DNA of 64,000 nt from a virus (Duplodnaviria; Caudoviricetes), in IMG/VR virus record IMGVR_UViG_3300049596_000679, positions 21,941 through 85,940 of that record; one strand, 5' to 3'. Below, one piece after another: positions 9,105 through 63,256 of this stretch (the stretch's first letter is position 1; each line of letters starts with the position of its first letter). The notes under the pieces are model-generated. The model worked only from the letters and a program-made list of their open reading frames with translations. It was not told the origin of the DNA and searched no databases. A program made the position numbers and the translations under genes.

Positions 9105-9131
9105 TATTGGTCTAAATACCAATAATTAGGA

Positions 9132-9160
9132 ATATCGGTTAATTAGCCGATATTTTTTTT
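9132..9160. terminator. Intrinsic terminator between convergent genes
   Basis: aatatcggt-taatta-gccgatatt hairpin followed by a T-run. Confidence 0.75.
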
Positions 9161-9171
9161 ATTTTATATTT

Positions 9172-10851
9172 TTAATTACAAAGACCAATATTGGTAATTG
9201 TAATAAATGTTGAGAATGTTGTTGGAACCGATGATGAACATACTGTTACTGATGAATTACCATTAATATTTTGTTGAGTTGGAGTACCAGTACTACATGG
9301 GTTATACGTAAATTTTTCAGGTTTAATATATGAGTTCTCAATCAAATAATTATAACAAGCTGATGTTGGTGTAGATGGTGTTTGGGTTGGTGTACTTGTT
9401 AATGTTGGTGTTGGTGTTGGGGTATTAATAATAACACACTGTGAACAAGATCCTTCAGATTCAGGACCTAAAATATTTGTTAAAACTATAGTATTAACGC
9501 CAGCAATATCACTTACAAATCCATCATATACAATACAAGTAGATATACCATTAACAAATGATTCGTATACATATCCTTTAGCTGGGGTACCACCTAAAGG
9601 GTCTAAAACAACATCTGTTGTGTAATATAAGAACCCTGTATTGCATTCTTTAAAACGTTTACTACCATTACATATAATATAATCGTCAAACGTGTTGAAT
9701 ACCACAGACCCATCAAAATTACAATTATATTGTGGAGATGGGGTTGGTGTTGCAATCATTTTACCACTTGTTGCGGTAGGTGTTGGTGTTAATACATTTG
9801 CAGTTACCGATATTCCTTTACCACCACAAATTTCAGTTGCGGTTGGAGTTGGTGTTGGGGTGGGTGTTGGAGTACCTGTTACCGTTGCCGTCGGAGTTAA
9901 AGGTAATTCACAATCAAACGCCGCTTCAAATGATATTGGCTGACAGTATTGGGTTGGGGTTGGTGTTGGAATAGGACAAGATCCACCTGTAAAGAAATTA
10001 TCGCATAAATCAGGACAATCTGTATTACAAGGTGATGGGCCAAATAAATAACAATCACCATCTAATGAGTTTGACAAACACCAACGATTATCAGTTGATG
10101 AAAAATAAATATAAAAACCATTTGTTGAACCAGTCCAGAATAATTCACCATTCCACGTACCACCACTTATATATGTGTCATCATAAATAATGTCACCTGT
10201 TGAAATACAATAAGATTCGTAAGGACAAGGACCGGGGGTTAATGTAGGTGTTGGAGTTAAAGTTTGTGTTGGAGTTGGGGTTGGGGTAGGTGTTGTACAA
10301 GCGGCATCATGAAGACTGATACATTCATCACAATCTACATTTTCTGGATCAATATAATCACCAATAGGGTTCCAAACATATGATGGATATCCTATCTGCG
10401 GACTAACAACAGTAAAACAATTACTTTGAGTGTCATTATCCCAAACAACATATACAATACTTCCAAGAATAAGTAACGATATTGAAGAATTTGAAGTTAT
10501 TTCAAGTGTTACTCCAGCACAACATCCTGAAAGATAATATGAGAAAGATTCACTTGTTGGGGTTGGTGTTAACGTTGGAGTTGGGGTTGGTGTTGGGGTT
10601 GCAGGACAAGGGCCTGACTCTAATATTTGTCCGTCCGATTCAAAATAATAATAAATGTAATTTTCATAATAAAAATAAAAATCGCCAATTGATGATATTG
10701 GTGTTGTACATCCTGGGTCCGAATTTACAGTGGTGCCATTAGGGAAAGGTAATGTCGCGGTATCAATGTATACTGATATTGGATCGCCACCACCAGTACA
10801 TAAACCTATTGATGTTGATCCGGTATAGATGGTTATAAGAGTACAAGCCAT
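9172..10851 (-). CDS. Cys-rich multi-domain protein with repeated TPTPTP linkers; putative virion decoration/fibre
   Basis: Six PT-rich tracts separate small Cys-containing domains. The GTWNGELFW...W domain resembles GYLNGQPTW...W in ORF 4548. Confidence 0.55.
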   Translation of the reverse strand: MACTLITIYTGSTSIGLCTGGGDPISVYIDTATLPFPNGTTVNSDPGCTTPISSIGDFYFYYENYIYYYFESDGQILESGPCPATPTPTPTPTLTPTPTSESFSYYLSGCCAGVTLEITSNSSISLLILGSIVYVVWDNDTQSNCFTVVSPQIGYPSYVWNPIGDYIDPENVDCDECISLHDAACTTPTPTPTPTQTLTPTPTLTPGPCPYESYCISTGDIIYDDTYISGGTWNGELFWTGSTNGFYIYFSSTDNRWCLSNSLDGDCYLFGPSPCNTDCPDLCDNFFTGGSCPIPTPTPTQYCQPISFEAAFDCELPLTPTATVTGTPTPTPTPTPTATEICGGKGISVTANVLTPTPTATSGKMIATPTPSPQYNCNFDGSVVFNTFDDYIICNGSKRFKECNTGFLYYTTDVVLDPLGGTPAKGYVYESFVNGISTCIVYDGFVSDIAGVNTIVLTNILGPESEGSCSQCVIINTPTPTPTLTSTPTQTPSTPTSACYNYLIENSYIKPEKFTYNPCSTGTPTQQNINGNSSVTVCSSSVPTTFSTFITITNIGLCN

Positions 10852-21870: not shown

Positions 21871-22283
21871 GCGGTAATAACTAGTTGACCTCTACCGACA
21901 TAAAAATCAGACTTCCGCATAACGGTTTTAATAATAAGATTAAATTCGTAAGGATTAATTTCTTCTATTAGAATTGGAATATTAAGTAGGGTTGATTCAT
22001 CTTTAATTACAAACTCAACACCATCATATAACTCACCAATGACAATATATTGTACTATATCGTCCTTTACCTTAGATACTGATTTTAATATATCATAATC
22101 TCTAATAGCATCACCACCTTCTGAAAAATGTCTAGATTTTTGTGATTCTGCGTGGGACTTCATTCCAGGTACCTTTCCACGTTGGTACCTTAAATTCATG
22201 GTGACAGTAAGGTTTGCTTTGATCTCAGCAATCTTCTTTTCTAAGATTAAAATTTTACGTATTGATTCTCTAAGTAATGACAT
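21864..22283 (-). CDS. Hypothetical late protein with LxE leader
   Basis: MSLLRESIRKILILE leader; reverse TATTTAT at 22290; SHA...RH and KTVMRK motifs. Confidence 0.6.
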   Translation of the reverse strand: MSLLRESIRKILILEKKIAEIKANLTVTMNLRYQRGKVPGMKSHAESQKSRHFSEGGDAIRDYDILKSVSKVKDDIVQYIVIGELYDGVEFVIKDESTLLNIPILIEEINPYEFNLIIKTVMRKSDFYVGRGQLVITAK

Positions 22284-26478: not shown

Positions 26479-28320
26479 ATGAACTATTATTTGAAAAATA
26501 AAATCCAAAAACTTATTAATGAAACTTTGGAGGACAAAGCGAATGAAGTGATGGAAAAATTAAAATTTAACAAACCTGGCAGTTCTTTTGATTATGTTGA
26601 AGAGGGAGAAATGTGTGAATCATGCGGCGGAGAAATGACAGAAGGTGAATGTATGGAATGTGGTAATATGTATGAAGGAGAAATGTGTGAATCATGTGGT
26701 GGAGAAATGACAGAAGGAGAAACGTGTGAATCATGTGGTGGAGAAATGAGAGAACAGAATCCAAAAAGGGATTGGGGTAGTGTAGGTACGGGAGCCGCTG
26801 CAGGAGGATTGTATGGTGCCTCGACAGGAGCGGCTATAGGATCTGTTGTACCTGTAGTTGGTACCGCAGTAGGTGCTGCATTAGGTGCTGCATTAGGTGC
26901 CGCAACAGGCGCCGCGGCAGGATTATTATACAGTTCTAAAGGTTCTTATGACGGTGTTAAAAAAATATTTGACGCTTGTAATAAAAGTGGTATGGGTAAA
27001 TCAACCATGAATGGAAGTACGTTAGATTCAATATCAAAAAGTCTTTACGATGCGGTTAGAGTATGGACCGGAACTGATGAAGACGCTATCAAAGACGCTC
27101 TAAGTCAACTTAAAACAATTCCTGACTTTTGTAGTGTTATTAAAAGATATGAGGAAAATTATCCTGGAGAAAATTTACTTGATGACTTAGACGGTGATAT
27201 TGATACTGATAGTGAGTGGAATGAATATGTTTATTTACCATTATTGGCAGCAAAAAGAAAATCTGAAGAACTTGGTAAAAAGTCAGGTGGATCAATAAGA
27301 GAAAATGACGAAATGGATTTTGAAACTCCTATAAGAGATGCTATTAGATCTCATAAAGGTAAATTTAGAACTCCTATGAGAGATGCTATAAGATCTAATA
27401 AAGGTAAATTTAAAACTCCTATGAGAGATGCTATGGCTATGAGATCTCGTAAAAACAGACATAATGATTTTGAAGATGACATGAACGAAGTTGAGTTGGA
27501 TGAAAAATTATACGGAAACCAAAAAAGAATTGATAAGAACCATAATGGAAGATTAGATTCGCAGGACTTCAAAATGTTAAGAAAAAAAGAAGATGTAAAT
27601 GAAAATGTGTTCTATGAATTAACAACTGCAGTAAATGGCAAAAGAGAAAAACTTTTATTTAATGAAAGTCAGTTTGAAGAAATGATTGAGAATATTGTTT
27701 TAAAAGAAGAAAGTAAATTCAATAAAGGTAAGACACCGGCTGGATATGCTGAATATGAAAGATCTATTAAAACGTCAAAAAAAAATGAAGAAGGTTATAT
27801 GAAAGATTTGTCCAAAAAAATGAAAGATTATTTGAAAGACGGATCTAAAGGTAAATATGAAATGTCACCAAAACATTTTCCAAAAGGAAATGGTGAATTA
27901 GAAGAAATGTCTAAAAAGGCTTATGTTGCTTCAGGAGCAATTGAGGATTATATTGATAACTTTACTGCCGCTGGTTTAGAAAACTTAGATTATGATGAAA
28001 TCCATCCTGATGAAGATTGGGTAACTGACAACGTTGTTGGGTCTTCAAGAACGGGTAATAATCCTGAATGGGCAAACGCAGTTGAGACACCAAATAACGA
28101 GAAGAGAAATAAGATTAGAAAAGATAATTTATTGGCTAAAATTAAACGTAAGGCTTACAATAAAGCGCCTCAACCTGTTGTTACTGACAAATCAGGTGAA
28201 AATGCGGGGGATAAAATTATGGCTAAGTTAGAATCTATTGACGAAAAGAAAAAACAAAAAATCAATGAGGACTATACACGTATTATGAGTTTAATGTCTT
28301 ATAAGAAAAACACTCAATAA
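26479..28320 (+). CDS. Multidomain late protein: LxE leader, CxxCG repeats, glycine zipper, annexin-like repeat, EF-hand-like loop
   Basis: EGEMCESCGG repeats; GAAAGGLYGASTGAAIG; LYDAVRVWTGTDEDAIKDAL...Y...Y..ENLLDDLDGD; DKNHNGRLDSQDF. Confidence 0.7.
   Translation: MNYYLKNKIQKLINETLEDKANEVMEKLKFNKPGSSFDYVEEGEMCESCGGEMTEGECMECGNMYEGEMCESCGGEMTEGETCESCGGEMREQNPKRDWGSVGTGAAAGGLYGASTGAAIGSVVPVVGTAVGAALGAALGAATGAAAGLLYSSKGSYDGVKKIFDACNKSGMGKSTMNGSTLDSISKSLYDAVRVWTGTDEDAIKDALSQLKTIPDFCSVIKRYEENYPGENLLDDLDGDIDTDSEWNEYVYLPLLAAKRKSEELGKKSGGSIRENDEMDFETPIRDAIRSHKGKFRTPMRDAIRSNKGKFKTPMRDAMAMRSRKNRHNDFEDDMNEVELDEKLYGNQKRIDKNHNGRLDSQDFKMLRKKEDVNENVFYELTTAVNGKREKLLFNESQFEEMIENIVLKEESKFNKGKTPAGYAEYERSIKTSKKNEEGYMKDLSKKMKDYLKDGSKGKYEMSPKHFPKGNGELEEMSKKAYVASGAIEDYIDNFTAAGLENLDYDEIHPDEDWVTDNVVGSSRTGNNPEWANAVETPNNEKRNKIRKDNLLAKIKRKAYNKAPQPVVTDKSGENAGDKIMAKLESIDEKKKQKINEDYTRIMSLMSYKKNTQ
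27324..27449 (+). repeat. 45-bp tandem coding repeat, about 2.7 copies (TPxRDAIRSxKGKFx)
   Basis: actcctat(a/g)agagatgctat... units are visible. Confidence 0.85.
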
Positions 28321-32874: not shown

Positions 32875-34764
32875 ATGGAATTACTTAAGGTATTATCAAA
32901 TGTCATTAAAGAAAACACAAACGGTAAACGTCTTGTAAGTGAAGCAATGGCCGAAAAGGTTGTTAAATTTTTAATTGACAAATACAAACCTACAACTAAG
33001 GATACAGAAGAACAAATAACTGCGGTTATTAACGCATTTGATAAATATAAAAGTGGGTTACCTCAAGATCAAAGAGATATTACCAAATTAACTTATAGTA
33101 TTGTTAAGAACATTGTTTTATCAAAGGAGATTAAAAAACAAGAAAAAAGTATATTCAAAAAATATATGGAAGCCAATAAAGGTGCCGACAAAAATGCGGT
33201 TAAATTGGCATTACGTAAGTTTTACGAATTGTTTCCAATCCTACCTATAAATCAAAGAGACGTTCTTAAAATGCCTTATTTGAAATTGGTTGAGTTTTTA
33301 CAGGGTAAGTTTAATTCTATGTTAACATCAGCGGCACTTAAGAAATTTAAAGATGATAAGGTTAATGTAACACCTGAACAATTAATTTATTATGTATCAA
33401 CCTACTTAGATCTATACCATAGATTACCTGCAAATTTACCACCATTGTTGTTTATGAGTTTTGATGAACTTGAACATACATTAGATGGTATGGGAGATTT
33501 AACTGATGACATTAAAGATACAAAAGATGATTATTCTGACATTGAAACAATATACGATGATAATAACTTATTAATCTTCAAACCAAGTGGTAAGGAACAA
33601 TGTATTAAATTGGCTAACGGAAGAAGTTGGTGTATATCTAAATCAGGTGGTGGTAATATGTATTACAATTATCGTTTGGGACATAACTTAACAATTTATT
33701 ATGTTATTGATAAAGATAAGGCATTTGGTGACCTTAACTATTCAGTTGTCATCTTAGTTGAGCCTTATGGTGGAAAACGAATTGCGGATGGTCAAAATAT
33801 GGCTGGAGGATATTCAGGTCATAAAAGAGAAGATTGGAGTACAATTGTAAGTAAAGTTCCAAAATTGAAAGGCAAAGAACATTTGTTTGTTGCTGATCCA
33901 TTGAGTAGTGCTGAACAAAAAGTACTGAATGACTACAAAAATACTTCCATCAATAAAGATGCGATTAAAGAACTTGGTAGTGAACAAGCGGCTGAAATGT
34001 GGCTTGAGCTTTCAAGTCCTGATTTAACATATAGAAGTAATGGTGATGAAATTTATCGTAACTTTACCGAAAATCTTAAAAACAAATACTTAGGGTTGGG
34101 AATGGACTTGACCGCTGGAATGATCAATAATTCCGAACCTAGTGTGTTGAAATATTATGCGGCAAGAAAACTTCAAGGGTTGATGTCAAAAAGTTTAGGT
34201 CAATTGAGTGATTCGGATATTGCATTCATCAATAGTCCTATAATGAGAGATAATAAGAAAAAATTAAGAGAAAAATTCTCAGGTCAATTAGCCGGAGTTA
34301 GTAGTAGTGGTTATGTTGGTCTTGAATATCCAAAAGATGATAACTCTAAGTATGTTGCATTATTTGGGTTTGATGATTTCTTTCAACATATTCCAACTAA
34401 TACAACTATGATCCAAATGGAAAATACAAGTAAAACTCCAATTGCTTTGGATTTACCGGAAAGTATTGGTAAATTAACCGAATTAAAAACATTGATTATT
34501 GATAATATGGTTAAGTCAATCCCTGAAAGTATTGGAAATTGTACCAAATTGAAATTTATAAACTTACCTAATAACCCACAATTGGAAAGTATTCCTGAGG
34601 CGTTTGGTGAATTGTATTGTTTGAACTTCTTCTCAACGGAGAATTCAAATCCTAGTATGAGAATACCTAAAAAATTAGAAGAATATATGACAGAGGATGA
34701 AGGATTTTGGTTTATCAATTTCCCTCCTGAATTGAAGAAACATTGTGGACCTATAAGATCTTAA
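32875..34764 (+). CDS. Late protein with a WC[IT] domain and C-terminal leucine-rich repeats
   Basis: IYDDNNLLIFKP...SWCISK...YYVIDK; LPESIGKLTELKTL and IPESIGNCTKLKFI LRRs. Confidence 0.7.
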   Translation: MELLKVLSNVIKENTNGKRLVSEAMAEKVVKFLIDKYKPTTKDTEEQITAVINAFDKYKSGLPQDQRDITKLTYSIVKNIVLSKEIKKQEKSIFKKYMEANKGADKNAVKLALRKFYELFPILPINQRDVLKMPYLKLVEFLQGKFNSMLTSAALKKFKDDKVNVTPEQLIYYVSTYLDLYHRLPANLPPLLFMSFDELEHTLDGMGDLTDDIKDTKDDYSDIETIYDDNNLLIFKPSGKEQCIKLANGRSWCISKSGGGNMYYNYRLGHNLTIYYVIDKDKAFGDLNYSVVILVEPYGGKRIADGQNMAGGYSGHKREDWSTIVSKVPKLKGKEHLFVADPLSSAEQKVLNDYKNTSINKDAIKELGSEQAAEMWLELSSPDLTYRSNGDEIYRNFTENLKNKYLGLGMDLTAGMINNSEPSVLKYYAARKLQGLMSKSLGQLSDSDIAFINSPIMRDNKKKLREKFSGQLAGVSSSGYVGLEYPKDDNSKYVALFGFDDFFQHIPTNTTMIQMENTSKTPIALDLPESIGKLTELKTLIIDNMVKSIPESIGNCTKLKFINLPNNPQLESIPEAFGELYCLNFFSTENSNPSMRIPKKLEEYMTEDEGFWFINFPPELKKHCGPIRS

Positions 34765-36931: not shown

Positions 36932-37492
36932 ATGGGAAGAATTGTAAGATTAACAGAATCCGATTTAACAAGAATTGTTAGACGAGTACTTAAAGAAAAT
37001 AAATCCTCTCACCCACAATATATTAAAGTTGAGTTAACGACAAAGTGGGAAAAGTTTATGGGAAAAGAATCTGAGGATAGTCGTTTAGGTGATACTAGAG
37101 GATATAGTAATTACCGGGGAGAAACAATTAAGATGGTACCTAATATGTTGTATAACATTGGTGGTGGTAAACACGTAGATGAAGATCAATATACAATGAA
37201 TTATTTTGCTGAATATAAACCAGAAGATTCTAAAATTGAAATCCACGTAATTGATTGTTTTGGAAAATCAAGGAATGATTTAGACAATGTTAAAAAGGTC
37301 TCTATTAACGATACCCTTTGGAGTAAAGAACCTTGGGATTGGGATAAAGGAATGTTTACAACAAAACCAAATGTACAAAATAAATGTGCTGCAAGAGGCG
37401 AAAATATGAAATCAATGTTTCATAAAAGATTTGAAGTTGGGGAAACAGATCATAGAGGTTATTTTGAAATTGTTGGATCTGGTGAATTATAA
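36932..37492 (+). CDS. Late protein with LTESDL leader
   Basis: MGRIVRLTESDLTRIVRRVLKE; TATTTAT at 36908. Confidence 0.7.
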   Translation: MGRIVRLTESDLTRIVRRVLKENKSSHPQYIKVELTTKWEKFMGKESEDSRLGDTRGYSNYRGETIKMVPNMLYNIGGGKHVDEDQYTMNYFAEYKPEDSKIEIHVIDCFGKSRNDLDNVKKVSINDTLWSKEPWDWDKGMFTTKPNVQNKCAARGENMKSMFHKRFEVGETDHRGYFEIVGSGEL

Positions 37493-39699: not shown

Positions 39700-41235
39700 A
39701 TGAAAAAAGTTTTAAGAATTAATGAGGGTGATTTAATTAGTTTAATTAAGAATATTATTATTGAACAAGATGATAATGTTGAGTATGAAGATTTTACACC
39801 CCAAGAATATATTGATTTACTAAAGTCTGTTAATTACAAAGCACAAGCGATTCCTAAGTTTCCTGATTTTAAGGGTAAAAAAATAAGAGTTAATGGTAGC
39901 TTATCTTTAATTGGTTTAAAACAAATAACTAATTTGGGTGAGTTAATTGTGACTGGTGATTTAAATGTTCGTTCCACAGGTATTGTAAGTCTTGAAGGTG
40001 TTACAGTTGGTGGTAGTTTAAGTCATTGGGACACACCATATAGTCGAGAACTTGATAGAAGAAAAGAAATGGCTTTAAGGGCTGAAGCCAAACAAAGAAG
40101 AGAAGATGGTGAATGGGATCTAAATAGTCCTAATATTGATGACGAAGGTTTAATGGCAAACGCAGTTTTTGACTATATGGTTCAAGAAAGTGATATTGAA
40201 TATTTAGATGGACCAGAACGTGAAGAATTAGAAGATTTGGAAAGAAGAATGGAAGAACTTGAGGAAAGAATAGATAACGAGGAAGATTCTGAAATTGTTG
40301 ATGAATTGGAGATTGAACAAAATGATTTGCAATCCGAGATTGATGAACTTAAGGACAAAGATAATGATGTGTATGATTTAATACCTGTAGGTTCCCATTA
40401 TGACTTACATACATTTAGGTCAATACATAACGATACTAGTGGTAATGTTTATGCGGTTGGAACTGAAAATGAAGCGGATAGTTCCCTTGAAGACTATTAT
40501 GATGGCATGGTAGACGATTTAAGTAATTTTAGTAAAGAAACTTTATCGTCCCATATTGATGGTGACGAAGTTGCGGAATATTATGAAGACATGATTCGTG
40601 AATGGGTTATGGACGATCCTGAAAATTACGATGTTAGTAGGGAAACTAGTCGTAGTCAAGATAAAGAAATTGAAAAATTACAAAACCAAAAAAGGTCACT
40701 TGAAATAGAAACATATTTAATTTCAAGTGGAGCTAGATCTCCTCTTATTGAGGAAGATATTGAATCTTTAAAATACTTCAAATTTAATGATTACATGGAT
40801 AACATTTTAGTTGTTGAATGGTCTGAAAATAAATGGCAAATTTACCAAAACGGTAAAAAAGTTGAGTCAGTAACTTATGAAGATGAAGATGAGGATGGTG
40901 AACATGAGTCGGATAATGAATCAAGGGTTGAAGAAATTGAAAATGAAATAGAAGGTATAGACGAAGACATACAAGATATAAAAGATGAGCCAGATGGTGA
41001 TTTAAATAATGATGAGGTAGAAGAAGCCGTTGAGGGTAGGTTAGAAGAAATTAGAGATTCACCATTGAGTTGGTTAGATGAAATGGGTGACGAATATAAT
41101 CATTTTGTAGATAAAAAAAGTTTATTGGGTGATTTAGTTGATGAGGGTGGTTATGGAGATCTAAACGGATATAATAATGAATATGATACCGTTTCAGTTA
41201 ATGATTCAACTTTTGTTGTAATGAGAATTGACTAA
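39700..41235 (+). CDS. Highly acidic late protein with INEGDL leader and a short beta-solenoid repeat
   Basis: MKKVLRINEGDLISLIKNIIIE; VNGSLSL/VTGDLNV/VGGSL repeats; D/E-rich coiled coils. Confidence 0.7.
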   Translation: MKKVLRINEGDLISLIKNIIIEQDDNVEYEDFTPQEYIDLLKSVNYKAQAIPKFPDFKGKKIRVNGSLSLIGLKQITNLGELIVTGDLNVRSTGIVSLEGVTVGGSLSHWDTPYSRELDRRKEMALRAEAKQRREDGEWDLNSPNIDDEGLMANAVFDYMVQESDIEYLDGPEREELEDLERRMEELEERIDNEEDSEIVDELEIEQNDLQSEIDELKDKDNDVYDLIPVGSHYDLHTFRSIHNDTSGNVYAVGTENEADSSLEDYYDGMVDDLSNFSKETLSSHIDGDEVAEYYEDMIREWVMDDPENYDVSRETSRSQDKEIEKLQNQKRSLEIETYLISSGARSPLIEEDIESLKYFKFNDYMDNILVVEWSENKWQIYQNGKKVESVTYEDEDEDGEHESDNESRVEEIENEIEGIDEDIQDIKDEPDGDLNNDEVEEAVEGRLEEIRDSPLSWLDEMGDEYNHFVDKKSLLGDLVDEGGYGDLNGYNNEYDTVSVNDSTFVVMRID

Positions 41236-48687: not shown

Positions 48688-50244
48688 ATGAGGAAAAAGT
48701 TAATAACGGAATCGGGAATAAGAAACATCAGGGAATTATCTAAAAGATACCCTGAGGCGAAAATATACTTTCACCAAGATTTAGATGGTGTAACCACTGC
48801 TTTAGGTATGAAAAGCTACTTAGAACAAAATGGAATCAAAGTTGTTGACTCTGAAATTATCCAATATGGTGATAAGGAATTCGCAATTAAAAAGTTGGAT
48901 GCTGAGGGTGATGTTATGCCGGTGTTAGTTGACTTTGCTCACGGTAAACCAATGTTTGTTATACATACTGACCACCACGACACACAAGCGGGGGTTGAAC
49001 AAGGTACTTCAACTAATTTTAAATCCTCAAGATCTAACGTTGAGACAATATCTCAAACCGTATCTCCAAGAGATATTTTCCCATCTGACGATATCACTTT
49101 GATATCTACGGTTGACTCAGCAAATTATGCTCAATATGATATTAGTCCTGAACAAGTAATGAACTATTTGTTTAAGGTAGATAAAGATCAATCACTACAA
49201 AAAAACAAAATGATAATGGGTATGGTTGCTAATAAATTATTATTGGCATTCAAAAACAAACCAGGGTTCTTGGAAAATATTGTAATGAATGCAAATCCAT
49301 CGTTATTAAGTATATTGTTAAACATCAGATCTCAGATCAAAGAAAAAAGTTATGCTGATGTTGGGTCTTTGGAAAAAAACAAAGAGAGTTATGTTCAAAC
49401 AATGAAAACTCACAAGAATGTTAAAGTTGATGATAAAATTATAGTTCAGTATGGTGGAGGTAGTATGATGAAACCAGGATCATATGATAGATACACACCA
49501 TTCAGAAATAATCCTGACGCTGACTTCTTGGTGATTGCTTGGCCGTTAGGGTTGGTACAAGCGTCTTGTAATCCATTTAAGAAAGAAAGAGCACTTAAAG
49601 GTGTAAACTTAGGTGAGATCAAAGATGATGTCTTAAACAAGTGGAAATCACAATTACAAGATAAGGATATTCCTTTATCAACAATAAAATGGATATCAGA
49701 ATCAGGAAAAGGTTTTGGTGAACAATCAGTTGGTTTTACATTCAGAGATTTTAACGCCTTATATGGTAAAGAATTTAAACAAATGGCCGATGGGGAAGAC
49801 ATCCTTGGTGATGTTGAAGAGGCAATGAAAAAACCATTCAGTAATTTAACAGATAAAGAAATGAGAATGTTAGATTCTATTAGTGTAAATTCTTGGGATC
49901 TAATTCAATCCAATAGTGGGGGACACAAATGTATTACAAATATTTCTGGGTTATCATATTTAGGTAGATCTAAAAGACCACCTGAAGGTAAATACAAATA
50001 TAATGAAGAGTCAGATGATTCTCCTTATATTAAATTTACTAAGATGGTACAGAATGAATTTGTTAGAGTTTTGAAAGAAAAAATTAATGAAGATGGTGGT
50101 AATAGATATGAGCCAAATTTTGAGGTTGAAATGACGGAACACGCAAGGTCATTAGGAAACGCTAGAAAACAAGGACAAGGATTAAGATTCTCAAAGTCTG
50201 CAGTAAAATCAAATCAAATAAGATTTAGACCAAATAATAGATAA
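48688..50244 (+). CDS. DHH/DHHA1-family phosphoesterase with LITE leader
   Basis: HQDLDG, LVDF, TDHH and C-terminal GGH; TATTTAT at 48677. Confidence 0.75.
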   Translation: MRKKLITESGIRNIRELSKRYPEAKIYFHQDLDGVTTALGMKSYLEQNGIKVVDSEIIQYGDKEFAIKKLDAEGDVMPVLVDFAHGKPMFVIHTDHHDTQAGVEQGTSTNFKSSRSNVETISQTVSPRDIFPSDDITLISTVDSANYAQYDISPEQVMNYLFKVDKDQSLQKNKMIMGMVANKLLLAFKNKPGFLENIVMNANPSLLSILLNIRSQIKEKSYADVGSLEKNKESYVQTMKTHKNVKVDDKIIVQYGGGSMMKPGSYDRYTPFRNNPDADFLVIAWPLGLVQASCNPFKKERALKGVNLGEIKDDVLNKWKSQLQDKDIPLSTIKWISESGKGFGEQSVGFTFRDFNALYGKEFKQMADGEDILGDVEEAMKKPFSNLTDKEMRMLDSISVNSWDLIQSNSGGHKCITNISGLSYLGRSKRPPEGKYKYNEESDDSPYIKFTKMVQNEFVRVLKEKINEDGGNRYEPNFEVEMTEHARSLGNARKQGQGLRFSKSAVKSNQIRFRPNNR

Positions 50245-50248
50245 TAGT

Positions 50249-50929
50249 ATGAACTTATTAAACGAAGAAATAACAAGAATTAAATCAATGATGGGTATTA
50301 TTACCGAAAGTAATATATCTTTACCTATTAAAATTGGTAAGACTTGGAATCCTGGAAAAAAAGATGCGGATTTACTTCATTCATTTGAAACAAGAAAAAT
50401 TGATAAAAAAGGAGCCCTAATTGGAACCCAAATTGAGGAGAAACTAAAGGAACTTTATGATGCGGGAATTAACCCGAATGTGAGTAATTTAGAATTAATT
50501 GTGGATTCTAAAAATTACACAGTAACTTGGAGAGCTACCATTGATGAGAGTAAAGATGGTAAAGCTTATATGGGAATTGCAACAAGAGGATCTGCTGGTG
50601 GAAGTTCCGACACAAGAGCCGCAGAACAAGTTGAACCACTTAAACAAGATTTAAGGAAAAAAGGAGCTGAAGACATTACGTTATTTTTAGATTTTAAAAA
50701 TACAAATGGGATTCCTATCAGACAATATTTCTTTAAGTATACATTACCCGATAAATACCCACCACATGAGTCTGGATCATCAAATTATGTAAGAACAGAA
50801 GATCCTGTAGTAAGTGATAATTCAGATGATGATGTTGTTGATGTTGAAGACGGTGTAACAACTACCACTACAACTAAAAAGAGTCCTTTTGAATTTTTTA
50901 AAAACCTTGGTGGTATGTTAAAAAAATGA
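50249..50929 (+). CDS. Late protein with LNEEITRIKSMM leader
   Basis: Leader motif; unknown core domain; poly-Thr tail. Confidence 0.65.
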   Translation: MNLLNEEITRIKSMMGIITESNISLPIKIGKTWNPGKKDADLLHSFETRKIDKKGALIGTQIEEKLKELYDAGINPNVSNLELIVDSKNYTVTWRATIDESKDGKAYMGIATRGSAGGSSDTRAAEQVEPLKQDLRKKGAEDITLFLDFKNTNGIPIRQYFFKYTLPDKYPPHESGSSNYVRTEDPVVSDNSDDDVVDVEDGVTTTTTTKKSPFEFFKNLGGMLKK

Positions 50930-52671: not shown

Positions 52672-52884
52672 ATGTTACCTAAAATAAAATTAACGGAAAG
52701 TGAGATCAGAGATATTTTGAGTCAACATGGTGTAAAGACCAATGTTTTGGTTGAACAAACTCAAAATTACACCACTGTGGACATTCAAAATTGGTTAAAT
52801 TCTAATAAAAACGCAGGATTAGATGTTGACGGCAAAATGGGAATTTTAACGGTTAAGGCCATAAAAAATGCGTTAATAGGATAA
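52672..52884 (+). CDS. LTESE leader plus a single peptidoglycan-binding domain
   Basis: KLTESEIRDIL; IQNWLN....LDVDGKMGILTVKAI. Confidence 0.7.
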   Translation: MLPKIKLTESEIRDILSQHGVKTNVLVEQTQNYTTVDIQNWLNSNKNAGLDVDGKMGILTVKAIKNALIG

Positions 52885-52887
52885 GAT

Positions 52888-55041
52888 ATGAAAAAAATTA
52901 CAGATAGTTTATTAAAAAGAATTGTTAGACAAAGTCTAAATGAAAGTTATGGTTTGTTAAATGAGGCCACTTTCGCAACAGGTAAAATAACTTCTGCTGG
53001 TGTTGAGTATGAAAATCTTGATATAACTGAAAATCCATGTCCTCGTGGTGGTTTTTGTTTAACACCGGCTACAAAAAGTGGTTATAAAATGGCGAGTGAA
53101 TTTGCTAAAGAAACATCTGTTCCGGGTGATTATACCGAACAAATAACTTGGATGGAGTCGGTTATGGCGTTATGTGATAATGAAGAATATAGTAAAGGGG
53201 AACCAATGGATGAAGGAACCATTGGTAACATTGTAAGTGAGATTCAGGATGAAATGGACGATGGTGTTATTGACCATTCTTTTATTAAGAAAAAAGTTCA
53301 ATCATTAAGTGATTTTCCTAGTTTTTGTATTGCTAGAGAAAGATCAAATTCTTATGGTTATGACATTTTTGGTTCAAATGCTGAGTATAGATTGAATATG
53401 GGTGCTAATGATAATGATGACTATAAAAATTATGTTGTATTACCGGTTTTTCAATTACTTCAAAATTCTGTTAGTAAAACTAAAAAATTTGAACCTAAAT
53501 TTTGGGAATCTGTTGCAGCTGCTGCTAAAACACAAAAACCAAAACCAAATACTACTACAGGTGGAGGAGGTACTGAGAACACTACTTTAGACATTGGGTC
53601 ATTACCTTGTGTTGTTGAACATCCTGCCTTAATCAATAAAAAAGAACCATTAGATAATGGTTTTGGGTTTAGATTAAAAACAGGAAATCCAGTAATTGAT
53701 GATTTTACATTTGGTGTTACAAAAGATCCAAATGTACCTGATAGCATGTTACAAGGTAAAAAGTTCTCAAATAAAAGTCAGATTCTACTTGATTTTAATT
53801 GTGATGATAAATACATACAATGGTCACTTTCAAGTGATGTTTGGAATTATGATGATGTTGCATTTGGCGGAGCTTGGGATGCATCTACGGGTGGTAGTGT
53901 TGCTTTAACCACAGACCCTGATCTTGAAGATGATGGTAAAGTTAATCAAAGTATTCAAACAGAAAGAGTAAAAGGTTTCAGACACAATTTGTTAACTGAG
54001 GCGGAATTTAAACTTGGAGATAAAGGCCCTGAGGTTGGTAAAATACAAAGTAAATTAGGTTTAAAACCAGATAAAGGTACACCAATTTATGGTCCAGCAA
54101 CTAAAGCCGCAGTTGAAAAATTTCAAACAGATAATGGAATTACACCTGTGACAGGAAATATTGATGCCGTTACTTATGACAAAATTATTGAAAAATATCC
54201 CGATCCAATACAACAAACGGGTGCAGGGTGGACTCAAGATTTAAAAGTAGGTATGTCTGGACCTGATGTTGAATTTATACAAACAAAATTAGGTATAAGT
54301 AAAGGTAAGTATGGACCTGAAACCGAAAAGACGGTTAAAGAATTCCAAAAAAAATACAAATTCGCTGAAACGGGTATTGTTGATAAAACAACGTATGATA
54401 AATTAATACAAGTTAAAGATGCGGGTACTCCATTAACGTTTTCGGCTAAAAAACATAATTATGTAGTTGGTCAATGGATTAAAGTAACTCCTGAGAATGG
54501 TAATGAGGCAAATCAATTAACCGAAAATAATGGTTATTTTAGAATAATAAAAGTACCAAATGATTATACAATTATATTAGATTTACCTTGGGGAAATTCA
54601 AAAGGTTTTAAAACTATCGGAGGATCAACACAAAGAGTTTTATTTGGTGAAGATGCAAAAGAAGGTACCAAACAAGTTATTAAAAGAGATAGAAATACTA
54701 ATACTAATAATAATTCAGGTACAAGAAGTAATAATAATAATTCAGGTAAAAGAAGCAATAACAATAATTCAAATACAAATACTGTAGATACTGAAAAACA
54801 AAAACAAAGAAAGGTACGTACCAAAGAATTTTGTGATACCTTAAGAGAAGTAAAGAAATATATAAATAATAATAAAGGTGGTGATTTAACTATTAGTTGT
54901 GACAGAACTCAAAAAACAATAAATCAAATTATGGTGGCACTTACAGGTGGTACCATAGGTGCTCCAGTTGCTCCCGTTGCTCCCGTTGCTCCCGTTGCTC
55001 CAGTTTCCTCACCGGGTGGTGGAAATGTAACGGTATATTAA
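52888..55041 (+). CDS. Multidomain late protein: leader, degenerate annexin-like domain, two PG-binding domains
   Basis: MKKITDSLLKRIVRQSLNE; LGDKGPEVGKIQSKL..YGPATKAAVEKFQ; LKVGMSGPDVEFIQ..YGPETEKTVKEFQ. Confidence 0.7.
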   Translation: MKKITDSLLKRIVRQSLNESYGLLNEATFATGKITSAGVEYENLDITENPCPRGGFCLTPATKSGYKMASEFAKETSVPGDYTEQITWMESVMALCDNEEYSKGEPMDEGTIGNIVSEIQDEMDDGVIDHSFIKKKVQSLSDFPSFCIARERSNSYGYDIFGSNAEYRLNMGANDNDDYKNYVVLPVFQLLQNSVSKTKKFEPKFWESVAAAAKTQKPKPNTTTGGGGTENTTLDIGSLPCVVEHPALINKKEPLDNGFGFRLKTGNPVIDDFTFGVTKDPNVPDSMLQGKKFSNKSQILLDFNCDDKYIQWSLSSDVWNYDDVAFGGAWDASTGGSVALTTDPDLEDDGKVNQSIQTERVKGFRHNLLTEAEFKLGDKGPEVGKIQSKLGLKPDKGTPIYGPATKAAVEKFQTDNGITPVTGNIDAVTYDKIIEKYPDPIQQTGAGWTQDLKVGMSGPDVEFIQTKLGISKGKYGPETEKTVKEFQKKYKFAETGIVDKTTYDKLIQVKDAGTPLTFSAKKHNYVVGQWIKVTPENGNEANQLTENNGYFRIIKVPNDYTIILDLPWGNSKGFKTIGGSTQRVLFGEDAKEGTKQVIKRDRNTNTNNNSGTRSNNNNSGKRSNNNNSNTNTVDTEKQKQRKVRTKEFCDTLREVKKYINNNKGGDLTISCDRTQKTINQIMVALTGGTIGAPVAPVAPVAPVAPVSSPGGGNVTVY

Positions 55042-55114: not shown

Positions 55115-55516
55115 ATGGAAAAAATGTTATACATCGTTAGAGGAATACCGGGAAGTGGTAAGTCTACTTTTGCTAAATCATTGGGTGGAACTCATTTTGA
55201 AACGGATATGTTTTTTATGGTTGATGGTGAATATAAATTTGATTTCACAAAATTGAAAGAGGCACATAAATGGTGTCAGGATAGAGTTGGTAATGCGATG
55301 ATATTAAATATTACTGCAAATTTAAACAATGTAATTGTGGTTTCAAATACATTTACACAAGAGTGGGAAATGCAACCATATTTTGATATGGCAGAAAATT
55401 TTGATTATAAAGTATTTTCTGTTATTGTTGAAAACAGACATGGTGGAATTAATCAACACGGTGTTCCTGAAGATAAAATAGAATTAATGCGTAATCGTTT
55501 TGAAATAAAATTATGA
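55115..55516 (+). CDS. P-loop polynucleotide kinase-like (AAA_33) protein
   Basis: RGIPGSGKST, VSNTF and HGVP; TATATTTG at 55103. Confidence 0.8.
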   Translation: MEKMLYIVRGIPGSGKSTFAKSLGGTHFETDMFFMVDGEYKFDFTKLKEAHKWCQDRVGNAMILNITANLNNVIVVSNTFTQEWEMQPYFDMAENFDYKVFSVIVENRHGGINQHGVPEDKIELMRNRFEIKL

Positions 55517-56169
55517 TGAAATTTGATAAAATATTAACAACAGGTAAAGTGTGGGTCACGTCTGATCCGCACTACAACCATAAAAACATTTGCCGGGGTG
55601 TTACCGATTGGAGAACACTTGATGGGAAAGTACCGGAATATAACACAAGAGATTTCCCAACTTTAGAACTAATGAATAACACATTGGTTAACAATATCAA
55701 CTCAAAAGTTGGTCAGGACGATACTTTAATTATGTTGGGTGATATTGCGTTTGGTGGGTTTGAATTTATTAAAATTTTCTTGGACCGATTGGTATGTAAA
55801 AACATACACTTGGTTCTTGGTAACCACGATCACCATATCAGAAACAATAGGGATGACATTAAAGATATGTTCTTATCTGTTAGTGATTACTTACAGGTTA
55901 ATATTGATGGACAGAATTTTGTGATGACTCACTATCCATTTGAAAGTTGGAATGGTCTTGGTAAAGGTGTTGTTCACCTTCACGGACACGTTCATTTACC
56001 GGTAGGTAGAAAGTGGGGTAAAGGTAAAAGATTGGACGTTGGTGTTGATGGAAATGGTTTGTTTCCATATCGTATAACTGAGGTTGTACATATGATGGAT
56101 AAACGAGACATTGTTTCTGAAATGGATAATGATCACCACTTAGATGATATAGTTAATGTTGTGGGTTAA
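55513..56169 (+). CDS. Calcineurin-like metallophosphoesterase
   Basis: SDPH, LGD, GNHD, THYP and HGHVH. Confidence 0.88.
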   Translation: MMKFDKILTTGKVWVTSDPHYNHKNICRGVTDWRTLDGKVPEYNTRDFPTLELMNNTLVNNINSKVGQDDTLIMLGDIAFGGFEFIKIFLDRLVCKNIHLVLGNHDHHIRNNRDDIKDMFLSVSDYLQVNIDGQNFVMTHYPFESWNGLGKGVVHLHGHVHLPVGRKWGKGKRLDVGVDGNGLFPYRITEVVHMMDKRDIVSEMDNDHHLDDIVNVVG

Positions 56170-58111: not shown

Positions 58112-59230
58112 ATGGAAAATTTAAATAGCGTATGTTATGTTGGTACAATCGGAGAGGTTAAGCCAATAGAAGGCGCTGACAACATAGAACTTGTTATGGT
58201 TAATGGTTGGAATGCCATAACTAAAAAAGGAGAATATAAAGTTGATGATTTGGTTGTTGTTGCAACCACCGATGCGGTTATACCACAAAAACTTTCTGAT
58301 GGGTTAAATGTCACAAGTTATCTTCGTAAAGGTCAGAGAGTGAGAACTATAAAACTTCGTAAGGTTTACTCTGAATGTTTAATAATACCAATAGGATTTG
58401 TTCCAAAAATATATAGATACGATGGTTCTGACTGCATGGAGTTACTTGAAGTGTTCAAATACGAACCACCCGTTAAGATGGTTCAGTTAAGTGGAGGTAG
58501 AAAATTCAAATACCACCAAAACCCTAACTTTCATGTTTACTACAAATTTCCTAACTTGAAGAACGTTCCTGAAATGTTCAACGAAGAAGACATAGTTACT
58601 ATCACTCGTAAACTTCACGGAACAAATGCTCGTTATGGTATTGTTAAAAAGAAAAGATTATCCTTATGGGATTATGTTAAAAAGTTCTTTGGAGATAAAT
58701 GGGCTGGATATGAATATGTTTATGGATCTCACAACGTAGAGAAAGGTTCTGACTCTCAAGGGTTTTACAAATCGGACGTATGGAAAACAATCGCAGATAA
58801 TTACAAAATAAAAGATAAACTATGGGATTATGTTAAGACATATGGTAGTCCTGACTATTTGGGTGATGGGTTAATTATCTATGGTGAGATATATGGTCAT
58901 GGTATACAAAAAAATTATGATTATGGTTTAACTGATGTTAAATTTGCTGGTTTTGATGTTGAGTTAAATGGTAATTACCGACCTTATTACGATGAAAAGA
59001 ACGTATTCAAATCTTTGGGATTACAAAGAGTTGATGTTCTTTATATGGGTCCTTGGTCTAAAGAAGAACAAGATAAACACGTATTCAATAACAACATAAT
59101 GGGAACCAAAGTTCCTCACGAAGGTGTGGTTGTTAAATCCGTTACCGGTGATAGACACAAAGTAGGTAAAGTGATAAACCCTGATTATAGTATATTCTGT
59201 GAAAAAAATAATGTAGGTGACTCCCATTGA
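58112..59230 (+). CDS. ATP-dependent RNA ligase (DRB0094-like, N-terminal OB fold)
   Basis: IEGADNIE, motif I KLHGTN, IYGEIYG, FAGFDV, EGVVVK and KVIN. Confidence 0.88.
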   Translation: MENLNSVCYVGTIGEVKPIEGADNIELVMVNGWNAITKKGEYKVDDLVVVATTDAVIPQKLSDGLNVTSYLRKGQRVRTIKLRKVYSECLIIPIGFVPKIYRYDGSDCMELLEVFKYEPPVKMVQLSGGRKFKYHQNPNFHVYYKFPNLKNVPEMFNEEDIVTITRKLHGTNARYGIVKKKRLSLWDYVKKFFGDKWAGYEYVYGSHNVEKGSDSQGFYKSDVWKTIADNYKIKDKLWDYVKTYGSPDYLGDGLIIYGEIYGHGIQKNYDYGLTDVKFAGFDVELNGNYRPYYDEKNVFKSLGLQRVDVLYMGPWSKEEQDKHVFNNNIMGTKVPHEGVVVKSVTGDRHKVGKVINPDYSIFCEKNNVGDSH

Positions 59231-60730: not shown

Positions 60731-61015
60731 ATGGATGATTTAAGTAAAAACATAAAAAAAATGTATTTGAGAATAAATGGTGAAATAGCTGATCATGAAT
60801 TGCCACCTCCTCCACCAAAAAAAGGTAAAACTTTTACTCTTGATGAGGATCAGGTTAAAAAATTGGAGGAGTGGAAAGAACACATCAAGATAATATACGG
60901 TAAGTACGGTGATTATGAATATAGGTTTACCTCAAATGGAATTGGTCAAAGTGTTAAGGTCTATAGTGAGTTAGCGAACACAACTTTAGATCTTACAGAT
61001 GTGGATAAATGGTAA
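60731..61015 (+). CDS. Hypothetical phage protein
   Basis: YEYRFTSNGIG...LDLTDVDKW. Confidence 0.6.
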   Translation: MDDLSKNIKKMYLRINGEIADHELPPPPPKKGKTFTLDEDQVKKLEEWKEHIKIIYGKYGDYEYRFTSNGIGQSVKVYSELANTTLDLTDVDKW

Positions 61016-61037
61016 ACCAAACTTGAAAAATTATACG

Positions 61038-61066
61038 AAACCCTTACAGAAATGTGAGGGTTTTTT
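61038..61066 (+). terminator. Intrinsic terminator
   Basis: aaaccctta...tgagggttt followed by a T-run. Confidence 0.7.
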
Positions 61067-61098
61067 ACTTTATGAAGTATTTATATTAAAAACCATTA

Positions 61099-62220
61099 AT
61101 GCAAGATAAAAAAATTATTATTGAAGAATTAAGTAGGATTAAAAATCTTATGGTTTATGATAGATCTAAAACATTAAATGAAAATATTAATGAAGGTTTG
61201 TTTGACACTTCGGATGGTAAGATAGCGAGATGGTTATTACCTTCAGGTGATATCATTACCGGAGATAAAATAAAAGGGATGATACCTACAGGGGCGGAAC
61301 AGTTAAATGCTAAAAATGCGGAAAAAGCGATTGAGGTTGCTAGTGGGTTAAAAACCGTTTCCTCTATTTTTGGTGGAGGAGGAGCAACTGCTGCAACCGC
61401 GGCGGCAACAACAGGAGCTGGTGCCCTTGAGGTTGGTGCTGGTGCGGTTGGTGCTGGTGCGGTTGGTGCTGGTGCGGTTGGTGCTGAGGGAGCGGCAGCG
61501 GCTACTTTTTTAGGTTTAGGGCCTGTTGGTTGGATAGTAATCGGTGTTGCAGGTCTTGCGGCTTTAGGTTATTGGGCGGCAACAAAGGATGATAAAATGG
61601 GTATGATTGAAAATTTATTTGGAATTTGTAAATCAAGTAAAGAAAAGGATAAGTGGAAAAGATATATGAGTGATGAGGAGGTTAGAAAAAATTCAGGTAT
61701 ATTATACCATGCTATGGAAGGTTGGGGTACAGATGAGGATGCAATTTATAAAGTATTTAAATTGTTTAAAAGTCCTGGTGATTTTTGTGCGGTAAGTGAA
61801 AAATATGAAAGTTCATTTGGTGAATCGTTATTAGATGCTTTAGATGGAGACTTTGATTATGGTTGGGAACCAATTGCAAAATCTTTAGTTGATATGACTA
61901 AAAACTATGCTCAAACTGAAGCTGAAGATTATTGTAAAACTAACGTTAAGGAATGTGCGGACAAATTAAAATTGTATTGTGAAAAAACACCTGACGATCC
62001 TAAATGTAAAGTTTTGAAAACTAATGTTGTTGACTTTAAAAATTGTAATGGTGAATATTATAAAGGATGTAAGGGACCAAAAATAGTACAAGTACAAAAA
62101 TGTTTAGGTGTTGATGTTGATGGTAAGTTTGGTGATGAAACTGAAAAAAAATTAGAAGAAAAAATAAAAAGTAAAACCTTCAAAGACGAAGATGTTAAAA
62201 CAATATGTGATAAAAAATAA
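61099..62220 (+). CDS. Late protein: leader, Gly/Ala zipper plus TM, annexin-like repeat, C-terminal PG-binding domain
   Basis: IIEELSRIKNLM; GAVGA repeats; GLGPVGWIVIGVAGLAALG; LYHAMEGWGTDEDAIY...Y...FGESLLDAL; GCKGPKIVQVQKCLGVDVDGKFG. Confidence 0.75.
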   Translation: MQDKKIIIEELSRIKNLMVYDRSKTLNENINEGLFDTSDGKIARWLLPSGDIITGDKIKGMIPTGAEQLNAKNAEKAIEVASGLKTVSSIFGGGGATAATAAATTGAGALEVGAGAVGAGAVGAGAVGAEGAAAATFLGLGPVGWIVIGVAGLAALGYWAATKDDKMGMIENLFGICKSSKEKDKWKRYMSDEEVRKNSGILYHAMEGWGTDEDAIYKVFKLFKSPGDFCAVSEKYESSFGESLLDALDGDFDYGWEPIAKSLVDMTKNYAQTEAEDYCKTNVKECADKLKLYCEKTPDDPKCKVLKTNVVDFKNCNGEYYKGCKGPKIVQVQKCLGVDVDGKFGDETEKKLEEKIKSKTFKDEDVKTICDKK

Positions 62221-62237
62221 AATATTAACACATTTTT

Positions 62238-62267
62238 AAACCCCATTTCTAAAGAGTGGGGTTTTTT
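62238..62267 (+). terminator. Terminator, repeat copy 3 (diverged)
   Basis: aaaccccatttctaaagagtggggttt. Confidence 0.75.
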
Positions 62268-62671: not shown

Positions 62672-63256
62672 ATGAAAGTATTGATGTTAGATCACGATGG
62701 TGTAATTTGTCTATCCAATAATTGGGGTGGGCGAACAAAGAAATGGGCAAAATACCGAAGCGCAAATCCTGACAGTAGTGATGAGAAAAAAAATGCTCCT
62801 GTTGAATATCGTTTTGATGATTTTGATAAGAAGGCGATTAAGGACCTAAATGATATCATTGAAGAAACAGGATGTGAAATTGTTGTAAGTTCTGATTGGA
62901 AATTACACGCAACTCTTGAAGAACTTGGTGACTATTATGAAAGTCAGGGAATTATTAAACGACCAATTGCGTTAACACCTGATATACAAAATTGTACGGT
63001 TCATGGTAATTTATTTATATGGTCATCACGATGGGATTTGGAACAAACCAGAACTATTGAGATTAGACAATACTTACACGACCATCCTGAGGTTACGCAT
63101 TGGGTTTCTGTTGATGATTTGAATATGGGTAAAATTGGTGAACCTTGGAAAGATGTTTGGGCAATTGATAATTTTGTTCTAACACCAAAATCAAGTGAGG
63201 GAATCAAACAAAGTGGTATTAAAGAAAAGATATTAAATTTTTTAAAAGATGACTGA
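62672..63256 (+). CDS. HAD phosphatase of the 'Swiss Army Knife' RNA-repair type
   Basis: LMLDHDGVI, IVVSSDWK, R..EI..YL and VSVDD. Confidence 0.78.
   Translation: MKVLMLDHDGVICLSNNWGGRTKKWAKYRSANPDSSDEKKNAPVEYRFDDFDKKAIKDLNDIIEETGCEIVVSSDWKLHATLEELGDYYESQGIIKRPIALTPDIQNCTVHGNLFIWSSRWDLEQTRTIEIRQYLHDHPEVTHWVSVDDLNMGKIGEPWKDVWAIDNFVLTPKSSEGIKQSGIKEKILNFLKDD

Follow-up and report, generated by a model that had tools for sequence, protein, structure and literature searches.

Can a tailed phage make use of an annexin repeat and, if so, what for and on which face of which membrane? Annexins are usually treated as eukaryotic proteins with a few bacterial outliers. The question is raised by a gene in the IMG/VR virus record IMGVR_UViG_3300049596_000679 (Duplodnaviria; Caudoviricetes), an 85,940-base viral contig that is rated about 29% complete. 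We analysed positions 21,941 to 85,940 of this record, a stretch of 64,000 nucleotides that we call the window and whose numbering is used throughout; the GC content is about 30%, and the window holds no tRNA genes. The original prediction, made by reading the DNA letters, had placed a protein with an annexin-like domain at 61099-62220. The open reading frame (ORF) lies exactly there, on the + strand, and encodes 373 amino acids (the protein is called P0001 here). The strings quoted for it are also present, the annexin-like stretch as residues 202-252 and GPVGW as residues 141-145.

A modular protein of the cell envelope

P0001 is a modular protein acting on the cell envelope, in which a leader, a variable soluble stretch, a Gly/Ala-rich spacer, a hydrophobic helix, an annexin repeat, a cysteine-stapled stalk and a cysteine-stapled PG_binding_1-like domain follow each other in this order. 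Its domain make-up, its conserved calcium-site residues, its cysteine sets, the leader that it has in common with other proteins and its separate transcription unit are established here. Going by its sequence and by structural models, P0001 probably clamps the bacterial membrane to the cell wall. All counts of invariance and conservation refer to a family alignment of 34 diverse members. The gene is divided as follows, with confidence of the structural model given as the predicted local distance difference test (pLDDT):

61099..62220, + strand: gene for the annexin-repeat membrane protein P0001, an ORF of 373 amino acids
61099..61194, + strand: conserved leader, residues 1-32, an amphipathic helix followed by T-L-N-E-N-I-N-E with two [LI]-x-E motifs
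61363..61503, + strand: Gly/Ala/Thr-rich low-complexity spacer, residues 89-135 (pLDDT below 50 for residues 71-138)
61431-61486, inside the coding sequence: perfect 15-nucleotide tandem repeat, 3.7 copies, 100% identity
61504..61581, + strand: single hydrophobic helix of transmembrane type, residues 136-161 (from hydropathy and conservation)
61582..61680, + strand: juxtamembrane helices, residues 162-194 (model helices 166-179 and 181-185; C177 in 34/34 members)
61681..61893, + strand: single annexin repeat, residues 195-265 (GWGTDE loop at 208-213, C230, acidic cap D251)
61894..62031, + strand: helical linker, called the stalk, residues 266-311 (model helices 256-281, 283-296 and 301-308; C279, C286, C294 and C303)
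62032..62217, + strand: PG_binding_1-like three-helix domain, residues 312-373 (four conserved cysteines; from fold search)

One annexin repeat with a predicted calcium site

The annexin repeat is recognised by sequence and by fold. Pfam family PF00191 matches residues 201-252 with 31.5 bits against a curated cut-off of 25 (E 1.9e-7), and 28 of the 34 family members match it individually at E<=0.01. When the 34-sequence family profile was compared with the PDB, 83 sequences were found at E<=1, and all 60 matches listed were annexins or annexin fusions; the best was annexin VI, with E 2.6e-32 summed over its repeats and an independent E-value (i-E) of 1.7e-6 for the best single repeat. In the AlphaFold (AF2) model the region has a pLDDT of 81-96 and folds as a five-helix repeat (helices 192-206, 213-222, 226-240, 244-251 and 256 onward). 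The top Foldseek matches of this model are all annexins (70-82 columns, root-mean-square deviation (rmsd) 2.5-3.7 A, 25-27% identity, probability 1.00, E 0.02-0.1). With Pfam, the PDB sequences and the fold in agreement, the annexin call of the original prediction is firm.

The residues that would bind calcium, G210, T211, E213 and D251, are invariant in the 34 sequences, as are C177, C230 and a few others. In the comparison of the family profile with the PDB, D251 falls on the acidic cap residue of annexin repeats, and the tip of the loop is Trp or another hydrophobic residue across the family. GxGTD has been described as a type II Ca2+ motif, and its Trp has been linked to membrane binding (Kodavali et al. 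2014, PMC3894181). Judged by these residues, the type II calcium site of P0001, consisting of a GxGTD/E loop between helices A and B and an acidic residue in the D/E turn, appears intact.

Only one repeat is present, both as the single stretch matched by Pfam and as the single repeat of the model, and the four-repeat core of classical annexins is absent. Since the repeat stands alone, as in the single-domain annexins of bacteria, P0001 is an annexin-repeat protein and not a classical annexin.

The membrane helix and the cysteines beyond it

The original prediction had described a glycine-zipper transmembrane segment preceded by GAVGA repeats. The hydrophobic helix is firm: its hydropathy peak has a Kyte-Doolittle mean of 1.98 over 19 residues from residue 138, W159 is invariant, G144, W145 and L156 are nearly so, and T162, K163 and D164 follow. 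The zipper label is loose: a pattern check of P0001 found no canonical glycine-zipper pattern in the core hydrophobic helix; small-xxx-small-xxx-small patterns lie upstream only, starting at residues 88-131. The GAVGA repeats are real and correspond to the 15-nucleotide unit repeated 3.7 times at 61431-61486. The spacer that contains them varies widely in length among relatives. These length differences, together with the tandem repeat, suggest that slippage might still be ongoing.

The cysteines are distributed unevenly around the helix. Before it there are none in any of the 34 members, and after it there are 6-12, in an even number in 29/34. C177 and C230 are universal, while the stalk pairs (C279 together with C286 in 28/34 members, C294 together with C303 in 31/34) and the four cysteines of the last domain are gained or lost as sets with their module. 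Such a pattern fits the signature of disulfide-stabilised domains that would work outside the cytoplasm, in an oxidising compartment. A complex prediction with two copies of residues 132-312 scored 0.00 against a mark of 0.42 and is uninformative either way.

A diverged, predicted wall-binding domain at the C-terminus

For the last domain, sequence comparison and fold comparison gave different answers. Pfam PF01471 does not match P0001 even at E<=10, and a profile of 24 C-terminal domains yielded nothing significant among PDB sequences, the best holder of a wall-binding domain being 7rum with E 0.14. Folded alone, the domain forms three helices with a pLDDT of 91.7. In a VIA-align search of 48,161 chains, the top nine (4xxt, SleB, AP3 endolysin, SleC, phiKZ gp144, 5tv7, an L,D-transpeptidase, CtpB and 1lbu) all hold domains of the PG_binding_1 type. 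Their Z scores run from 8.0 to 6.5, and a Z below 8 may stem from a widespread arrangement of helices; 56-58 of the 62 residues are aligned, at an rmsd of 2.0-2.8 A. The top Foldseek matches, 4xxt (E 0.031, TM 0.70), SleB and phiKZ gp144, point to the same fold (TM 0.60-0.70).

The relatives add evidence from position. At the aligned place, four of the 34 members carry a true PF01471 domain (best E 1.7e-11) and one carries LysM. Alignment with the four true PF01471 relatives by hhalign gave E 0.0081 at a probability of 4.9%, over 38 columns that comprise helix 1 and the DGxFGxxT core. Because of the fold likeness and the true PF01471 and LysM domains at the same position, we call the last domain a diverged PG_binding_1-like domain; the models support this assignment, and wall binding is predicted. 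Of the peptidoglycan-binding domain proposed originally, the fold and the position in relatives are thus borne out, whereas a Pfam PF01471 match is not.

A leader shared with unrelated proteins

The leader of P0001 is as conserved as the calcium site, with E9, L11, Y20, T25, E28 and N29 invariant, and the conserved N-terminal block ends right after the two [LI]-x-E motifs. It also occurs on other proteins. A hidden Markov model (HMM) of the leader helix, run on 2094 unique ORFs, matched 38 N-termini, compared with 1, 0 and 0 matches in interior or C-terminal windows. Matches outside the family included the window ORF at 50249-50929 (E 1.5e-5) and proteins of 198-410 amino acids in other loci. 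A 31-column leader model stayed within the family, with 59 matches that were all N-terminal. Searches with jackhmmer gave two leader classes that do not merge, with 45 and 14 members, together 59 tagged N-termini in 12 families that were judged unrelated by residues 41 onward. A first, hand-made leader pattern was dropped as too strict (it matched 12 of 1634 N-termini, and the control windows gave 5, 0 and 2), and jackhmmer was used instead. Similar N-termini in the window are:

36932-37492, 39700-41235, 50249-50929, 52672-52884 and 52888-55041: similar leader-type N-termini
32875-34764 and 48688-50244: similar leader-type N-termini, recognised by eye only

In sequence, the leader of P0001 presumably bears no likeness to the capsid-targeting sequence (CTS) of phage T4. 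In its position and its ending it recalls it: according to a review (PMC9026906), the T4 protease gp21 cleaves behind L/I-X-E, an N-terminal CTS of 10 residues is enough to bring proteins into the head, and T4 Alt has a C-terminal propeptide. Of five related records, three contain a Peptidase_S77 protein (PF03420, the family of T4 gp21) with 80-87 bits, among them the only complete genome, of 322 kb. Perhaps the shared leader, as far as its sequence tells, is a portable address tag, for which head loading is a possible use.

The family and a second annexin gene

Homologues of P0001 were found on phage contigs of considerable size. A word-indexed search gave 79 homologues, all of them metagenomic proteins; the largest contig had 291,788 bases and carries P0004, a relative with 91% identity. 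A scan of viral contigs gave 79 viral loci on contigs of up to 322,372 bases. In an exhaustive profile search the number of representatives (50%-identity clusters) was 3053 for E<=1e-3, 817 for E<=1e-10 and 93 for E<=1e-30; cellular annexins will be among the weaker ones. A pattern scan of cellular species-representative genomes, a method of limited sensitivity, matched 62 stretches, none of them a relative. The close family turned up exclusively on contigs of uncultured phages, the largest of 322 kb.

The window contains a second gene of this kind:

26479..28320, + strand: paralogue P0002, 613 amino acids, sharing the Gly/Ala-rich hydrophobic segment and the annexin-like repeat

P0002 matches P0001 with E 1.6e-14 and 39% identity over residues 115-255; a second comparison gave 44% over 43 amino acids. 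No Pfam match to its annexin repeat was obtained at E<=0.01. Four CxxC pairs (residues 46-86) lie before the hydrophobic segment only, and two cysteines follow it. P0002 also has an EF-hand-like loop at 352-363 and a long Lys/Glu-rich tail, and at its extreme C-terminus a look-alike of the leader helix stands directly after I-N-E.

Transcription and gene neighbourhood

The annexin gene lies between two terminator-like hairpins and is preceded by a short promoter-like element:

61037..61064, + strand: terminator-like hairpin closing the upstream gene (60731-61015), a 12-pair stem followed by a T run
61078..61084, + strand: promoter-like element TATTTAT, 21 nucleotides before the ATG (from position enrichment across the record)
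62238..62264, + strand: terminator-like hairpin 18 nucleotides past the stop codon, an 11-pair stem followed by a T run
61078, 26457, 32854, 36908, 39687, 48677, 5890 and 4536: example sites of TATTTAT in the window

Since it is flanked by terminator-like hairpins, the annexin gene forms its own transcription unit. Between 58000 and 64000 there are six terminator-like sites, compared with 1.8 +/- 1.6 in shuffled sequence. On the + strand of the 85.9-kb record, 18 of the 37 copies of TATTTAT lie at most 60 nucleotides upstream of a + strand ORF start, a zone that makes up 6.8% of positions. These 18 copies precede 15 ORFs at distances of 5-60 nucleotides, mostly 11-38, and the ORFs include gp25-like baseplate, fibre-like and leader-tagged genes as well as both annexin genes. 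TATTTAT is thus, on its sequence and placement, a candidate phage promoter element. The motif TATAAATA, which we take to be the T4 late promoter motif, occurs at 23 sites against 16 +/- 4.7 expected, a number reached by 8 of 100 shuffles, and none stands on the + strand before the gene.

The neighbouring genes encode an RNA ligase, a HAD_SAK_2 phosphatase-like protein, a metallophosphatase and proteins of unknown type; a gp25-type baseplate wedge gene and a Baseplate_J gene are located upstream in the record. The metallophosphatase, the RNA ligase with a PHA02142 OB domain and the HAD_SAK_2 protein (55513-56169, 58112-59230 and 62672-63256) have the looks of an RNA-repair-type set. No endolysin catalytic domain was recognised near the annexin gene. 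Two further features of the window concern the wall and the host:

52888-55041: 717-amino-acid protein with two PG_binding_1 domains (E 1e-19) and a leader-type N-terminus, in which neither a signal peptide nor a catalytic domain was recognised
833-3514 and 4548-5873: large proteins with SprB repeats (PF13573), probably fibres, adjoining baseplate genes

The SprB repeats in these two proteins are a hint of a host from the phylum Bacteroidota.

In relatives the surroundings differ. Six related loci have, immediately before the annexin gene, a gene for a Pro-rich, lipoprotein-like protein of about 144 amino acids, and in 12 of 29 annexin groups a lipoprotein-like gene of 187 amino acids lies two genes upstream. 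No lipoprotein gene adjoins the annexin gene in this window. The slot of the 717-amino-acid protein at 52888-55041 is occupied by lipoprotein-like and membrane-annexin genes in the six related loci. In nine of the 29 groups a ClpP-type protease gene (PF00574, E 1.3e-56) lies three genes downstream, for example at 8700-9539 on the - strand of locus L021. It is the one conserved neighbour that could be named by Pfam or PHROG; the clusters at -1, +1, -2 and -3 could not. A gene of about 106 amino acids at -1 (17 groups) and one of about 596 amino acids at +1 or +2 (16 groups) are more constant neighbours still.

How the protein might reach the envelope

The statement of the original prediction that the protein bridges membrane and cell wall follows from its anatomy, namely the annexin repeat, the membrane helix and the wall-binding fold. 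In the mechanism that we propose, the C-terminal 210 residues would lie in the periplasm of the host, a Gram-negative bacterium that probably belongs to the Bacteroidota. The hydrophobic helix would sit in the membrane, and the adjoining annexin repeat would lie on the membrane surface and grip acidic phospholipid head groups via bound Ca2+. The stalk would then bridge the gap and the last domain would hold peptidoglycan, clamping membrane and wall at one spot.

The weakest step of the mechanism is the route by which the protein gets there. The leader might act like the T4 capsid-targeting sequence and load P0001 into the head, where a gp21-type prohead protease would remove it after E28 or E32. 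At infection the mature protein would be ejected, refold, become oxidised in the periplasm and anchor or seal the entry site. We favour such a delivery in the virion, which the original prediction had proposed and to which we assign a probability of roughly 40%; any of the roles named there (a DNA-entry channel, membrane resealing, superinfection exclusion) may apply. We favour it because it would explain the leader, the [LIV]-x-E motif in it, the protease of the related phages and the leader-like helix after I-N-E at the C-terminus of P0002, and because single annexin domains on the cargo of PVC contractile injection machines offer a precedent. The TATTTAT element that annexin, baseplate and fibre-like genes have in common supports it as well. 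Taken to its full extent, the proposal would be that T4-like jumbo phages of aquatic bacteria head-load annexin "landing" proteins via a cleavable leader. Fired into the periplasm, these would enter the cytoplasmic membrane with their Gly/Ala segment, grip lipids with the annexin repeat via Ca2+ and grip the wall with the last domain, and would build or seal the site where the DNA crosses. In this complete form we regard the proposal as doubtful.

Several observations weigh against delivery in the virion. So hydrophobic a helix would normally be caught during synthesis by the membrane-insertion machinery of the cell. The head-internal proteins of T4 go to the cytoplasm and not to the periplasm. 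A gp21-type protease was not found in this 29%-complete record, and its carriers are distant relatives with 30-32% identity to P0001. An [LIV]-x-E ending at residues 12-40 is present in 12/12 tagged families against 402/840 untagged ORFs, a count that is not independent of the leader model; [LI]-x-E is moreover a common tripeptide without N-terminal enrichment genome-wide (24 of 69 ORFs have it there, and interior windows give 21, 26 and 19). TATTTAT also stands before a DnaB-like helicase gene, so that a "late" timing is not secure and the element is suggestive only. For the annexin repeat and the C-terminal domain the Foldseek E-values are weak, none being <=1e-3, and a tblastn search of 50,697 deposited phage records found no cultured phage with a relative. 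Longer fused forms of residues 130-265 gave only four matches, none with a tape-measure Pfam domain, and a PHROG scan of seven long annexin-bearing proteins (from 150 listed) found no tape-measure families. An ordinary inner-membrane protein made late in infection would fit most of the data equally well.

This last possibility is only a little less probable than delivery in the virion and is the strongest of the alternatives. P0001 would be inserted as a signal-anchor protein, with its N-terminus in the cytoplasm and its C-terminus in the periplasm, and would tie the inner membrane to the wall. Possible purposes would be the bracing of the envelope during the long infection by a jumbo phage, the control of lysis in the manner of a holin or spanin, or superinfection exclusion, and the leader would be the helix by which P0001 docks on some phage partner in the cytoplasm. 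The hydrophobic helix, which is single, of textbook type and has an aromatic belt, argues for it, since signal-anchor insertion is the default behaviour of such a helix in an infected cell. The C-terminal part that is predicted to be oxidised and the cysteine-free N-terminal part of all 34 members point in the same direction, as do the CxxC pairs of P0002, which are zinc-ribbon-like and confined to the N-terminal side, and the gene's own transcription unit between two terminator-like hairpins. The lipoprotein-like genes next to the annexin gene in relatives (six loci; 12/29 groups) recall the pairs of inner- and outer-membrane lysis genes; the lack of such a neighbour in this window counts against it. 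The positive-inside rule points the opposite way, with 0-1 Lys/Arg in the 15 residues before the helix and 1-4 after it in all 34 members. This alternative would leave both the strong conservation of the leader and its presence on soluble, unrelated proteins unexplained, and the C-terminal helix copy of P0002, if real, would place the two copies on opposite sides of the membrane.

It might also be that the annexin repeat serves as a helical scaffold only, for protein contacts or stability and without binding calcium or lipid, in a wall-anchored membrane protein. A lone repeat that lacks the four-repeat disc of classical annexins would suit this role, and the repeat of P0002 has diverged too far for Pfam at E<=0.01. 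However, the residues that stay invariant over 34 diverse members are exactly those of the calcium site, the loop tip is hydrophobic as in lipid-binding annexins, and the repeat directly adjoins the membrane helix, which makes a mere scaffold improbable. That P0001 travels in the tail lumen like a tape measure or tube plug and inserts into the membrane when the tail fires is very improbable indeed: the weak PHROG matches of residues 94-163 to hydrophobic stretches of tape measures that speak for it (phrog_28, E 1.3e-5; phrog_1272, E 6.4e-4) cover low-complexity Gly/Ala sequence only and are weak matches driven by composition, a protein of 373 amino acids falls far short of the length needed for measuring a tail, the gene is surrounded by RNA-repair-type and unknown genes and not by tail genes, and neither the four fused forms nor the scan of the seven long proteins revealed a tape-measure form.

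Comparison with known proteins

P0001 most resembles the single-domain, sometimes membrane-anchored annexins of bacteria (PMC3894181). As described there, these have one or few repeats with a GxGTD type II loop, which often reads GWGTD, some of them also contain predicted transmembrane regions and additional domains, and they are commonest in Bacteroidetes, the likely host phylum of this phage. The available part of that survey differs from our case in that it mentions neither peptidoglycan nor a protein in which a leader and a Gly/Ala spacer are joined to a helix, an annexin repeat and a wall-binding domain (PMC3894181). In viruses this survey, the one systematic survey of annexins, found none (Kodavali et al. 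2014, PMC3894181). Our searches turned up no published phage annexin, a result that extends as far as the literature searched. With the eukaryotic annexins A4, A5 and A6 (PDB 2zoc, 1avr and 1avc) the repeat of P0001 shares fold and motif, at 25-27% identity over one repeat. Unlike P0001, whose single repeat stands beside a membrane helix, these proteins are soluble, have four or eight repeats and possess neither a membrane anchor nor a wall-binding domain.

A lone annexin domain on the cargo of a phage-tail-like contractile machine has been described for PVC-type injection toxins, where it was proposed to help in breaching or docking on the target membrane (Zhang et al. 2012, PMC3482391). In those toxins the annexin is followed by an enzymatic toxin domain and eukaryotic cells are the targets, whereas in P0001 it is followed by the PG_binding_1-like domain and the target would be bacterial.

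The last domain shares with the PF01471 domains of phiKZ gp144 (3bkh), AP3 endolysin (5nm7), SleB (6tci) and 4xxt the three-helix fold, and in the low-probability hhalign alignment its helix 1 and D-G-x-F-G-x-x-T core match those of true PF01471 domains; it differs from them in being shorter, in being stapled by four cysteines, in having no recognisable wall-cutting enzyme attached and in lacking a Pfam match. The tentative likeness of the leader to the T4 CTS and gp21 (PMC9026906) consists in a short N-terminal helix on unrelated proteins that ends in L/I-X-E and in a gp21-family protease in related phages. The leader of P0001, however, has about 30 residues instead of 10, and the cargo that it would load into the head contains a membrane helix. 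The pattern of a two-component spanin or T-type holin is approached by the lipoprotein-like neighbours in relatives and not in this window, and a topology with the N-terminus inside and the C-terminus outside would go with the inner-membrane alternative.

Implications

A whole phage family keeps the exact residues of the annexin calcium site in one repeat that stands beside a membrane helix and is combined with a wall-binding domain. This points to calcium-dependent lipid recognition as an envelope tool of phages, at entry or late in infection. The finding ties in with a common leader, by which different cargo proteins may be brought into the head, and with a DNA element that the annexin genes share upstream with baseplate genes. 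P0001 is small enough for a simple experiment on the binding of a lone annexin repeat to bacterial lipids, and the module of leader, membrane, lipid and wall binding might be used for anchoring proteins in the periplasm. If P0001 is indeed a head-loaded landing protein, an annexin would for the first time have a function in a virus, and there would be a concrete answer to the question of how a phage with a contractile tail secures its passage through the inner membrane at entry.

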